This document shows positions 29,177-31,803 of a stretch of 60,218 bases of DNA, in pieces. Each line of letters starts with the position of its first letter. The stretch's first letter is position 1. The translations under genes were made by a program, and so were the position numbers. Source of the stretch: an uncultured Erysipelotrichaceae bacterium (GTDB lineage: Bacteria > Bacillota_I > Bacilli_A > RF39 > UBA660); NCBI GenBank assembly GCA_902786275.1, contig CADACC010000001.1:1-60218 (forward strand), given 5' to 3'. Under the pieces are notes generated by a model that searched no databases, was not told the DNA's origin, and worked only from the letters and a program-made list of their open reading frames with translations.

Positions 29177-29860
29177 TCATATTCCCCTAATTTTTACATT
29201 AGGAAATTTCCCTTTCATTTCTTTATTTATTTGTATAAGATCTTCTTTTGAAAATGGTTCTAAGTGTTTACCTAAAACATTTTCACTTTTTACAAAATTT
29301 TGTAGAAACATTTTATCCCCATCAACATAACTACAAATTTCTGATATGGTTTTAATGTCATGAATATTTTTAATTATCGTAGTTCTAAATTCATGATCTA
29401 TAGAACTATTTTTAATTAGTTCTATACTTTTCTTTAATTTATCAGCTTGGACATTTACACCAGCAACATCTTTATATTTGGTTATAGTGTTTTTGATATC
29501 CATTGCGATATAATCAACTAAATTTTCATCGATTATTTTTTTTAGTACATCTAGATTACAACCATTAGTATCAAGTTTAACTTGTAAACCTAAATCTTTA
29601 ACTCTTTTAATAAAGAATATTAGATCGCTTTGTACCGTTGGTTCTCCTCCACTAATAACAAGTCCATCTATTACCCCTTTCCTTTTTTTTAAATAAGAAA
29701 ACACTTCTTCTTCACTAATTAAATCATCACTATCAAATGGTATTAAACCTGAATTATGACAGTATGGGCATCTTAAGTTACATCCTTGTGTAAAAATAAT
29801 ACTTGCCACTTTATTTGGAAAATCTAAAAGTGTTAATTTTTGAAGTCCTGCAATTTTCAT
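29177..29860 (-). CDS. nrdG: Radical SAM activase of anaerobic RNR
   Basis: GCNLRCPYCHN, SGGEPT, KLDTNG, DYIAMDIK, EFRTT. Confidence 0.95.
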   Translation of the reverse strand: MKIAGLQKLTLLDFPNKVASIIFTQGCNLRCPYCHNSGLIPFDSDDLISEEEVFSYLKKRKGVIDGLVISGGEPTVQSDLIFFIKRVKDLGLQVKLDTNGCNLDVLKKIIDENLVDYIAMDIKNTITKYKDVAGVNVQADKLKKSIELIKNSSIDHEFRTTIIKNIHDIKTISEICSYVDGDKMFLQNFVKSENVLGKHLEPFSKEDLIQINKEMKGKFPNVKIRGI

Positions 29861-31803
29861 TTCTTACCAACCTTTAGTTTTACAAAACCGAAGTCATCAT
29901 TCATTAACTCTTTGATTAAATCTACTATTTTCTTATTATTAGTTTTATCGGAAATATTTATCGTAACAAGACAACCACCACTTAGTAGTTTTTGTACTTT
30001 AGATAAATCTTTGTTATTAGTTATAAATTTAGCAGTACTAATTAAATCATAAGCACATTTATCAGTAATGTCTTTATGTGAACCATATATTGATTTATCA
30101 ATACCAATAAAGTGTTTTCTTGATGTTATAGTACTTGGTTCAAATAGTGAGAAATTAAGTTTTGTTTCTTCACTAAATTCCTTTATTTTCTTATTAAGAT
30201 ATTTTAATATCTCAATTAATAATGGATACTGTTTATCAGGATCTGGTTCGAATGATAGTACACATTCTTTTAAACCTACAAGTCCAAGATTTAGTATTCC
30301 TGATTTAATAATCTTTCTAATCTTTTGTCCTTGTTCTAGTCTTTCATCACCAAGTATGTTTCCATTAAATAATGCTTGGTAATTTTCTTTATTCTTATTT
30401 CCTAAGGTTTCAAAGTCTAAAAGCATTTCATTTTTTGCAAGTTCTAGGAGTTGATCTAATTCTTCATAAAAGTTTGAAATACTTTTATTATTTAAATATT
30501 TAAGGCCAAGTCTTGCAATATTTATTGAAGTATTAGTTGCAACCATTCTACCAGTTGACCTTTTTTCATTATCATTTAAGCTTTCAAATATCCTTATACC
30601 GTTACTAAAGTATTCAACTTGATTATTATCATCTTTATTATATGAACTATCAGGAAATGATAGTGATATATTTTTTTGATTAATAACTAAGCTAGCTATT
30701 TTACTTAAGTAACTATCATCCATATCTTTAGTTATTTTAAATACAACATGAATATTATCAATTAGATTATTATCAGTTAAATATGAGATAATGTTTTCTC
30801 TTATAAATGTTGATACATATGAATTATTTGAACTGCAACTTATTGTGAAATAATTATCAACTTGATATGATCTTAAATTATTAAAAATTCTACTAATTGT
30901 TACATTTATAAATTCTTTTTCGCTTTCAAATGTATCTGTAATCATCATTTCAAATACATTTTTAAGTATTGGACTTGTTACAAATTGTTCAAAGTAACTA
31001 ACATCTATATTAATATCTGTTATCCTGTTTATAATATCTTCAATTCTATTAAATGATACTAATTCATATATACCATTAACTTGAAAATAACATTTGAATT
31101 TTCTTTTTAATACTTTTTTATAATGATTTAAGAAATATTTTTCAAGCACTAAATCTATATTGTTAATTCCAAGTTCTGAACTAACCTCGTTTTGAGCACT
31201 TGTTATTTCATTTAGAAATTCGTCTAGATATTCATCATCAGGTTTTATATCAAGTTTCAAATTTAAATATGATATATAACCAAGTGGGAAAAATTCTAAA
31301 TTATGTATATATAAATTTCCTTCTTCATATGCTCTTACATATTTAGAATCAAGTATGTAAGATTTAGCATATTCTGATGAAATTATTTTTCCAAATTTAT
31401 GTAATAGTTTTTTTGGTGATAATGTTGAATCTATATTTTCAACACTTTCAACAACTTTAACAAATTTATGTTGTTGTTTCTCACTAAATACTTTTCTTGA
31501 TGCTGCTCTTCTTTGTCTATAATCTTGAAAAGCTTCAAATACTTTCTGAAATCCTAATTCTTTTAGGTGATTTTCTATTGTGTCTTGTATATCTTCTACG
31601 CTTATTGTTTTACGTTCCATATAATTATCATTAATATATTTAAGAACACTCTCGAAGACTTTATAAACTTGTTTTTCATCAACTTCTTGATATACAGCAT
31701 CAAATGCTTTTTTAATAGCTATTGCTATCTTTGATGCATTGAAGTCAACTCTTTGTCCGCTTCGTTTTACAACAACTAAGCTTTCAAGTACTTCGTTCCA
31801 CAT
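29857..31803 (-). CDS. NrdD-like protein with ATP cone, lacking the catalytic Cys loop and glycyl radical domain
   Basis: VVKRSG...SVEDIQDTIE ATP cone, LYIHNL, TSINIARLG, GLVGLKEC, IDKSIYG...ITDK; no (G/C)CR loop, no Zn ribbon, no R.xGY motif. Confidence 0.85.
   Translation of the reverse strand: MWNEVLESLVVVKRSGQRVDFNASKIAIAIKKAFDAVYQEVDEKQVYKVFESVLKYINDNYMERKTISVEDIQDTIENHLKELGFQKVFEAFQDYRQRRAASRKVFSEKQQHKFVKVVESVENIDSTLSPKKLLHKFGKIISSEYAKSYILDSKYVRAYEEGNLYIHNLEFFPLGYISYLNLKLDIKPDDEYLDEFLNEITSAQNEVSSELGINNIDLVLEKYFLNHYKKVLKRKFKCYFQVNGIYELVSFNRIEDIINRITDINIDVSYFEQFVTSPILKNVFEMMITDTFESEKEFINVTISRIFNNLRSYQVDNYFTISCSSNNSYVSTFIRENIISYLTDNNLIDNIHVVFKITKDMDDSYLSKIASLVINQKNISLSFPDSSYNKDDNNQVEYFSNGIRIFESLNDNEKRSTGRMVATNTSINIARLGLKYLNNKSISNFYEELDQLLELAKNEMLLDFETLGNKNKENYQALFNGNILGDERLEQGQKIRKIIKSGILNLGLVGLKECVLSFEPDPDKQYPLLIEILKYLNKKIKEFSEETKLNFSLFEPSTITSRKHFIGIDKSIYGSHKDITDKCAYDLISTAKFITNNKDLSKVQKLLSGGCLVTINISDKTNNKKIVDLIKELMNDDFGFVKLKVGKK

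Follow-up and report, generated by a model that had tools for sequence, protein, structure and literature searches.

The window analysed here is a 60,218-nucleotide stretch of DNA from an uncultured Erysipelotrichaceae bacterium (GTDB order RF39, family UBA660; GenBank assembly GCA_902786275.1, contig CADACC010000001.1, positions 1 to 60,218). Its open reading frame (ORF) list places four closely packed genes of an anaerobic, class III ribonucleotide reductase (RNR) operon on the minus strand. The first cistron (29857..31803, ATG start) encodes a protein of 648 amino acids (aa) that matches the Pfam families ATP-cone and NRDD; we refer to this product as pseudo-NrdD and to its orthologues as the main family. 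It is followed by nrdG (29177..29860), encoding a NrdG2-type activase (TIGR02495, 216.9 bits against a cut-off of 131), by a gene for a catalytic NrdD of 790 aa (26791..29163; NF006126, 1148 bits against a cut-off of 548), and, as the last cistron, by the thioredoxin-reductase-like gene trxB (25886..26776; Pyr_redox_2, 159 bits; TIGR01292, 323.5 bits, narrowly missing the cut-off of 343). A first-pass annotation of the window had described the first gene as a catalytically dead NrdD paralogue whose stop codon overlaps the nrdG start in an ATGA; this overlap is present in the sequence. We find that pseudo-NrdD is a folded, full-length, non-catalytic NrdD derivative, and there is strong support for its maintenance by purifying selection.

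Pseudo-NrdD comprises an ATP cone (aa 9-103; 31495..31779, minus strand), a connector (aa 104-125; 31429..31494, minus strand), and an NrdD-type barrel (aa 126-648; 29860..31428, minus strand). The cone, the best-conserved part of the protein, is matched by Pfam PF03477 at residues 10-100 with 61.9 bits (cut-off 25.8). The connector carries the conserved motif F106..K109..H112-K113-F114..K116..E119 and is devoid of the NxN flap motif. The barrel, recognised by the NRDD family (PF13597) at residues 192-641 with 116.7 bits over profile positions 87-502 of 562, lacks the catalytic and substrate-binding motifs and ends at the last barrel strand. None of the NCBIfam NrdD equivalog cut-offs was reached by pseudo-NrdD: the best match, NF005497, scored 173.4 against a cut-off of 764, and TIGR02487 scored 103 against 326. 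TIGR00244 (NrdR) was not among its NCBIfam matches, nor did a genome-wide TIGR00244 scan score at this gene. The uninterrupted 648-aa frame and all NrdD landmarks listed in the first-pass annotation were recovered, namely LYIHNL at 164, VEYFSNG at 396-402, TSINIARLG at 425, GLVGLKE at 507, IDKSIYG at 568, and ITDK at 579.

Motif columns were assigned by HMMER alignment to the NrdD of Prevotella copri (P. copri; 8p23; the PDB indices are the published numbers +4) and by alignments to real NrdDs, and the residue roles follow passages of the P. copri study (PMC11226230). The thiyl-radical cysteine (P. copri C416) is replaced by N401 at the tip of the finger loop (E397-R404, EYFSNGIR; 30592..30615, minus strand); this loop reads YMGCRTR in real NrdDs versus YFSNGxR in the main family. 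The second active-site cysteine, in the first barrel strand (P. copri Cys171), is gone, with ISYLN in the place of TTCCQ or YCAG in real enzymes. The triphosphate motif HxHD has become YIHN (165-168), the ATPAE loop, which contains P. copri Glu581, has become EPSTI (555-559), and YYTNS has become AYDLI. The NxN flap has no counterpart in pseudo-NrdD. The chain ends about 45 alignment columns short of the glycyl column (the Gly711 loop of P. copri), the Zn ribbon is also missing, and neither an R[VITM]xG[YFW] motif nor a C-terminal CxxC was found in pseudo-NrdD. The main-family consensus shows no conserved equivalent of the loop-2/s-site motif (QAMEAFIHNxNTxHSRxGxQ in NrdD1), which was placed by aligning a real NrdD1 with 8p23. 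N428, equivalent to P. copri Asn435, is retained. Because both cysteines, the NxN, HxHD, ATPAE, and loop-2/s-site motifs, the Zn ribbon, and the glycyl loop have been lost, pseudo-NrdD cannot be a reductase. The alignments thus bear out the eroded ATPAE and YYTNS motifs, the lost cysteine, and the missing C-terminal elements that had been noted from the sequence.

The same losses were observed in a 62-row alignment of 40 dead sequences and 22 real NrdDs of three types. The thiyl cysteine, the second cysteine, HxHD, and ATP[AIG]E are kept in all 22 real NrdDs, and the glycyl motif resides in the same chain in 20 of them, the other two being split genes. Among the 40 dead rows, by comparison, the thiyl cysteine, NxN, ATPAE, and the glycyl loop each occur in none. 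All 40 have an empty or variable NxN column, a few have a cysteine near the second-cysteine column (one exactly at the aligned column), and the dead chains end at approximately one common column. Across 82 main-family representatives, the thiyl position is occupied by N (34), D (24), S (7), T (5), or other residues (12), and never by Cys. None of the 120 closest orthologues contains the glycyl motif.

An AlphaFold2 model of pseudo-NrdD, computed from a 44-sequence alignment, reached a predicted local distance difference test score (pLDDT) of 89.9 and a predicted template modelling score (pTM) of 0.88. Low confidence was confined to the connector (residues 101-125, pLDDT 54-56). In a Foldseek search, the model retrieved P. 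copri NrdD first (8p2c, E 8e-31), followed by the enzymes of S. thermophilus, T4, and T. maritima. The target-normalised TM-score was 0.79-0.80 against P. copri chains without a modelled glycyl radical domain (8p39_A and 8p27_A).

Orthologues of pseudo-NrdD are abundant. A word-indexed search yielded 1160 matches, and lengths and identities were read for the best 120: 118 of these measure 626-653 aa and are 51-100% identical to pseudo-NrdD; the remaining two are fragments. An exhaustive search against clusters at 50% identity returned 120 clusters at E <= 1e-30; real NrdDs enter this list only from about E 1e-34, and the glycyl motif is missing in 84 of the 85 cluster representatives of 590-720 aa. 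A genome scan, consisting of a pattern scan with tblastn confirmation, located relatives in 374 species genomes. The 80 loci kept all come from assemblies of uncultured gut or rumen bacteria, with the labels Bacilli, Tenericutes, Mollicutes, Erysipelotrichaceae, or Clostridium sp. CAG. A single intact frame of 622-698 aa is present in 78 of them; locus L052 contains two frames and L077 a shorter one.

The ratio of nonsynonymous to synonymous substitution rates (dN/dS; Nei-Gojobori, NG86) of the pseudo-NrdD gene was 0.029-0.225 in 31 of 32 locus pairs, which are not independent since loci recur among them; the remaining pair was saturated. For the same pairs, dN/dS was of similar size for nrdG (0.06-0.35) and trxB (0.05-0.22), and amounted to 0.01-0.12 for nrdD. 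The end branches of the main family in the tree are 0.6-1.2 long versus 0.1-0.3 for real NrdD1, corresponding to three to five times faster evolution. The genomes that carry the main family have a size of 0.8-1.5 Mb. The first-pass annotation had set a retained pseudo-enzyme against a decaying pseudogene. With abundant orthologues of constant length and end point, dN/dS values of 0.03-0.22, and the Cys and Gly absent in all members examined, the data strongly support that pseudo-NrdD is kept by purifying selection as a pseudoenzyme.

The conservation is unevenly distributed over the protein. Mean pairwise identity among 82 main-family sequences is 0.34 for the whole protein, 0.55 for the ATP cone, 0.46 for the connector, 0.40 for the helix that follows the connector up to YIH, and 0.41 for the finger-loop tip. 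The lowest value, 0.23, belongs to the counterparts of the beta-hairpin, the dimer helices, the s-site, and loop 2. Alignment A1 has 16 invariant columns, of which 11 lie within residues 13-103. They include K13, R14, Y95, R99, and R103, which align with Lys7, Arg8, Tyr83, Arg87, and Arg91 of P. copri NrdD; according to passages of PMC11226230, these residues contact two bound nucleotides. Asp9 and Arg11, the roof residues through which P. copri cones contact each other, are replaced by the family-specific S15 and Q17. In S. thermophilus NrdD, as described in parts of PMC12662201, dATP leads to cone dimerisation via helix 4, and the connector is tied up. Precisely these elements, helix 4 and the first part of the connector, stay conserved in the main family, while the flap motif that they normally deliver is gone. 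We infer that the cone of pseudo-NrdD is an ATP/dATP sensor with nucleotide-contact residues that look intact. The nucleotide-sensing role suggested in the first pass thus gains support from the conservation of the cone and its invariant two-nucleotide residues, that is, from the sequence level. The more specific roles put forward there, a regulatory subunit, a scaffold, or a partner for NrdG or for oxygen protection, are hypothetical.

Pseudo-NrdD is not a recent duplicate of the downstream nrdD product, because BLASTP aligns only the cone and the N-terminus of the two proteins (30% identity over 212 aa, 60 bits); the first-pass annotation had reached the same view. In a quick IQ-TREE phylogeny, the 36 main-family rows cluster together, with 96 in the Shimodaira-Hasegawa-like approximate likelihood ratio test (SH-aLRT), beside the group of NF005497-type NrdD1. 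The nearest real relatives of pseudo-NrdD are the order's own NrdD1 proteins with 30-38% identity. The main family therefore derives from an NF005497-type NrdD and not from the NF006126-type enzyme encoded downstream. It is most similar to split NrdD1 genes of genus g37, which the tree does not place as its sisters. P0235 and P0264, which may represent further dead-family origins, fall within the real NrdD1 part of the tree; because of their long branches, this placement is unsafe, and they were not counted. Five unusually long NrdD relatives of 1074-1197 aa (P0246, P0249, P0252, P0267, and P0269) were also set aside; they may hold inserted elements.

The split genes are an observation in their own right. 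Of 13 complete real NrdD1 genes, 5 have a main ORF that terminates right after the Zn ribbon (L086:6170-6460, L087:6200-6500, L088:6200-6500, L098:3660-3960, and also L096). In these, the glycyl loop (..FERIRRITGYLVGT..RVKH) is encoded ahead of nrdG by a second, small ORF (about 50-55 aa) that has an ATG and a Shine-Dalgarno sequence of its own. The passages of a 2026 review that bear on the subject limit free-standing glycyl-radical proteins to formate lyases (PMC13450708), so that a stand-alone glycyl module of a class III RNR may be new.

The gene neighbourhood of the main family follows five arrangements. The order seen in the window, dead gene-nrdG2-nrdD2 with glutaredoxin domain-trxB, recurs in 78 of the 80 loci; among these, all 78 have nrdG as the next gene, whereas nrdD is visible in 77 and trxB in 63, with the available sequence ending before the gene in the others. 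Loci L066 and L067 have the order dead gene-nrdD1-nrdG1, with a real NrdD1 that scores 1064 bits on NF005497. In L104-L106, the dead gene is divergent from an E. coli-like nrdD-nrdG pair with an RMNGY loop, and in L107 it is divergent from another nrdD2-nrdG2. In one genus (L112, genome G040), it is unlinked from the RNR operon and stands beside HtrA-like and Abi_2 genes. The main family thus adjoins at least four different catalytic NrdD types, and therefore the partner enzyme has been exchanged repeatedly while the dead gene stayed. All partner NrdDs checked for a cone have one, namely the NrdD2 of the window, the NrdD1 of L067, and the E. coli-like enzymes of L104-L106. Three further loci deserve mention. 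L089 (G139:C106) contains the tandem complete systems nrdD1-nrdG1-nrdD2-nrdG2 and no dead gene, possibly an intermediate of RNR exchange. The NrdD2 module of L021 (G088) looks damaged, with a frame of 553 aa and trxB in two frames, and so does the NrdD2 of L116 (G066), whose 602-aa frame meets a stop within the matched region; assembly errors are possible in both.

A second dead family was found in genome G032. There, the gene for a 647-aa dead NrdD (L102:3965-5905) immediately precedes those for a real NrdD and NrdG. The dead protein shares 51% identity with a real NrdD of 708 aa and 37% with its real NrdD neighbour; with pseudo-NrdD, it has a match of only 68 bits in the cone and N-terminus and, within the barrel, a single weak segment of 33 bits. 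The phylogeny places it as sister to the 708-aa-type NrdD (SH-aLRT 100). HFHD has changed to YFHD, CC to SS, and GCR to GEN, GTPAE is eroded, and the chain ends before the Zn ribbon. Its orthologues, some of which come from clusters of 241 sequences, have 635-645 aa and 78-99% identity. Judged from these alignments, the L102 family represents a separate, younger origin of a dead NrdD with the set of losses seen in the main family. That the same design has been reached twice is, in our view, a strong argument for its usefulness.

The catalytic partner in the window has its own ATP cone, matches Pfam NRDD with 645.9 bits over profile positions 1-562, and contains a Glutaredoxin domain at 717-767. 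It keeps SMCCRLR, HIHD, ATPAE, and RITGY in the alignment. Its finger loop holds a CC pair (SMCCRLR), the glutaredoxin-like domain is fused C-terminally, and the trxB-like gene lies 3' of it. The system looks self-contained and would belong to the thiol-dependent rather than the formate-dependent subclass of class III RNRs. The genome has 1.10 Mb and is 89.6% complete; pseudo-NrdD and the downstream NrdD are its only proteins with ATP cones. Searches of this 89.6% complete genome for class I and class II RNRs and for NrdR gave no match, and the downstream NrdD is thus the only RNR found in it.

A probable promoter, inferred in function, lies at 31833..31870 on the minus strand and consists of an A-tract, a -35 element TTGTTA (31861-31856), and a TG-extended -10 element TACGAT (31838-31833); its score is below the threshold of the consensus scan. 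Of 69 regions upstream of pseudo-NrdD orthologues, 67 contain AAAAAACATT, with TTGA-like (-35) and TGnTAnnAT (-10) elements after it. The A-tract-CATTG part of this block (upstream regions L004-L083) is conserved beyond the need of a plain promoter, possibly as the target of a regulator. Between murC and the operon, the sequence TTTGTCAATTTT(G/T)TA(A/C)AAA is present in two copies (31937-31960 and 32025-32042) about 85 bases apart, both TTTGTCAATTTT copies showing a loose TTGT..ACAA symmetry. A terminator-like hairpin 3' of trxB (25748..25766, minus strand) came from a consensus scan and is weak, with 3 such sites in the region against 1.3 expected.

Near-identical DNA was detected in public sequencing runs. 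At least half of the sampled words were present in 15 runs from 9 studies, a possible source run being excluded, and these runs are labelled bovine, sheep, or unspecified gut metagenomes. Logan contigs of 127-154 bases fall on the pseudo-NrdD gene (X17, 29843-29993; X19, 31380-31506; X20, 31223-31376). They come from four runs labelled metatranscriptomic, of which two are probably DNA; such libraries can contain DNA, and most of the gene is uncovered. The automatic Atlas names of the proteins are only of the kind 'ATP cone/NRDD domain-containing'.

With the chances about evenly balanced, we propose that pseudo-NrdD is an accessory regulatory subunit that senses ATP and dATP and acts with class III RNR. 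Its starting point was an NF005497-type NrdD native to a group of small-genome gut and rumen Bacilli. The features required for radical chemistry and for the binding of substrate and specificity effector have been lost, and the ATP cone and the conserved connector retained. The cone would bind ATP or dATP, and the signal would pass through cone and connector contacts, with the barrel serving as a scaffold. Cone and connector are the most plausible contact route because they are the sole conserved surface common to all the changing partners. The outcome would be a modulation of the catalytic NrdD and/or of its activation in genomes where NrdR was not found. A tentative, more specific version of this proposal is that the two-nucleotide cone of pseudo-NrdD pairs with the cone of whatever catalytic NrdD is present in the cell and sets the dATP/ATP control of dNTP synthesis in these reduced genomes; on at least two occasions, the arrangement would have arisen through inactivation of the upstream member of a tandem nrdD duplicate.

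Several observations weigh against a regulatory subunit. The catalytic NrdD has its own cone, which leaves the need for a second sensor unexplained. Conservation is lowest in the counterparts of the dimer and s-site helices, and the partner type has changed repeatedly; both points speak against a fixed canonical heterodimer. Complex prediction with barrel fragments only (dead protein 140-648 and NrdD 145-635, both without cones) gave an interface score (ipSAE) of 0.00 in two runs made without controls, a result that counts neither for nor against a complex. In G040, the dead gene stands apart from the RNR operon, and its HtrA-like and Abi_2 neighbours are uninformative. In a sample of 151 genomes from 87 genera of the order, where dead-type genes were counted by frame length, a dead-type frame occurs in only 27 genomes and 19 genera; ten of these 27 loci were inspected, and the glycyl loop is missing in all ten. 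Profile A1 matches 148 of the 151 genomes but scores 600-700 bits on the order's real NrdD1, and we derive no carrier count from it. Most of the other genomes of the order have the real NrdD1 only. In genome G058, nrdG2-nrdD2-trxB is present and no dead gene was found, so this module can stand alone. Pseudo-NrdD is thus dispensable for some relatives.

The distribution of NrdR adds to these objections. NrdR exceeded the TIGR00244 cut-off in none of the 150 genomes of the family, whether or not a dead gene is present, and there is consequently no complementary distribution of the two. A role of pseudo-NrdD as an NrdR replacement gains nothing from an absence that is family-wide. Within the order sample, NrdR was above the cut-off in 1 of the 151 genomes, G001 of another family, where it lies directly upstream of nrdD. 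A short NrdR-like remnant with six stop codons is found at G139:C106:15555-15713.

Among the alternatives to a regulatory subunit, we consider it unlikely that pseudo-NrdD is a locked inactive protomer, that is, the permanently inactive monomer of a canonical heterodimer with the catalytic NrdD, to which it would lend its cone. Such a heterodimer would suit the P. copri enzyme, which has one active monomer at a time according to passages of PMC11226230. The L102 family retains the parent helix before loop 2 (GVQTIxYQINTL), both dead families arose beside a real nrdD, and the strong Shine-Dalgarno sequences and the first-cistron position fit a stoichiometric partner. In the main family, however, the dimer and s-site helices stand at 0.23 identity, yet the partner NrdD2 proteins are 77-92% identical. 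The occurrence of the main family beside at least four unlike NrdD types also speaks against a fixed dimer, and the partner NrdD in the window is only a distant relative of pseudo-NrdD.

It also seems rather improbable that the protein has a function unrelated to RNR control, whether it moonlights in a structural or binding capacity or whether its remodelled barrel has acquired a non-radical activity. In favour of this idea, the tip of the finger loop is conserved: Y398 and G402 reach at least 90%, and N or D occupies the former cysteine position in 58 of 82 rows. N428 and Y585 do not vary at all, and in one genus, the gene persists away from the RNR genes. There is no shared new catalytic residue, however, because the L102 family has Glu (GEN) at the former cysteine position. 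Moreover, linkage to class III RNR is the rule, and the strongest constraint lies in the cone and not in the barrel. The protein is not basic (median isoelectric point 6.8); with its net charge likewise unremarkable, nothing points to nucleic-acid binding.

We attach a low probability to a control of the activase, in which the barrel without glycyl radical domain would mimic the NrdG substrate and hold NrdG back or present it in dependence on ATP or dATP. The idea takes its strength from gene order, as in the window the dead gene runs into the start of nrdG with an overlapping or abutting stop codon, and nrdG is the next gene in 78 of the 80 loci. This adjacency looks secondary, because nrdG2-nrdD2-trxB has the same internal order in G058 and G040, where the dead gene is not part of the module, and nrdG is not adjacent in the other architectures. 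The dead protein, moreover, has no glycyl loop, which is the main recognition element of the activase. Passages of PMC13450708 state that activase specificity depends on the sequence of this loop.

A functionless relic, the slowly decaying gene of a displaced NrdD1, is very improbable: the three- to fivefold faster evolution than in real NrdD1, the absence from most genomes of the order, and the defects in L052 and L077 would agree with it, but simple decay is contradicted by dN/dS values of 0.03-0.22, by a length and end point constant over about 85 clusters at 50% identity, by intact frames in 78 of 80 loci in genomes of only 0.8-1.5 Mb, and by an independent family with the same losses.

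If pseudo-NrdD is indeed a regulatory subunit, it would add an extra layer to the control or assembly of class III RNR. Irrespective of its role, proteins with an ATP cone and an NRDD domain are not always reductases, which is a warning for annotation, and pseudo-NrdD is not to be counted as a second RNR in this genome. RNR biochemists have in it a concrete protein to examine with ATP or dATP, NrdD, and NrdG. To our knowledge, class III RNR has so far been treated as a two-component system of NrdD and activase, with the allostery residing within NrdD. A full-text search for RF39 together with ribonucleotide reductase found nothing, and no description of a non-catalytic NrdD was found in the full-text literature, supplements and subscription-only papers lying outside this search, or in the passages of PMC9531940 and PMC13450708 that were covered. 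The first-pass statement that no RNR with such a subunit has been described therefore stands for class III within these searches, and must be qualified for class I, where the yeast Rnr2-Rnr4 pair provides a precedent (PMC4245953, in part).

The closest known system, both in sequence and in fold, is the NF005497/PRK07111-type NrdD represented by the P. copri enzyme (8p23), with which pseudo-NrdD shares the ATP cone, the connector, and the ten-stranded barrel. It differs from this type by the loss of the thiyl and second cysteines, NxN, HxHD, ATPAE, loop 2, the Zn ribbon, and the glycyl loop. NrdR, the dATP/ATP-sensing repressor of nrd operons, is likewise non-catalytic, built around an ATP cone, and linked to nrd genes, and in some relatives the dead gene is divergent from nrdD-nrdG. 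NrdR, however, consists of a Zn ribbon and an ATP cone in about 150 aa, whereas pseudo-NrdD has no Zn ribbon or DNA-binding module, possesses a barrel of 520 aa, and is not basic. The betaherpesvirus R1 homologues M45/UL45 are inactive homologues of the RNR large subunit that have been kept for another role. Unlike pseudo-NrdD, they are viral class I proteins that function in host cell-death signalling, without any connection to an active RNR operon. Yeast Rnr4 is non-catalytic and lacks the metal ligands. Like pseudo-NrdD, it is a paralogue of an RNR subunit, and it partners the active subunit in the Rnr2-Rnr4 heterodimer (PMC4245953, in part); it differs in being a class I, radical-generating-type subunit without an ATP cone, and a heterodimer of pseudo-NrdD is hypothetical. 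The NrdB of Leeuwenhoekiella blandensis, as described in parts of PMC5794259, provides an example of activity control by a cone that is located off the catalytic chain, although there the cone sits on the active radical-generating subunit of a class I enzyme and not on a dead copy of a class III catalytic subunit. Finally, GrcA/YfiD of pyruvate formate-lyase is an accessory protein derived from a part of a glycyl radical enzyme (PMC13450708, in part). It is the mirror image of pseudo-NrdD, being a glycyl radical domain without the barrel, whereas pseudo-NrdD is a barrel without the glycyl radical domain.

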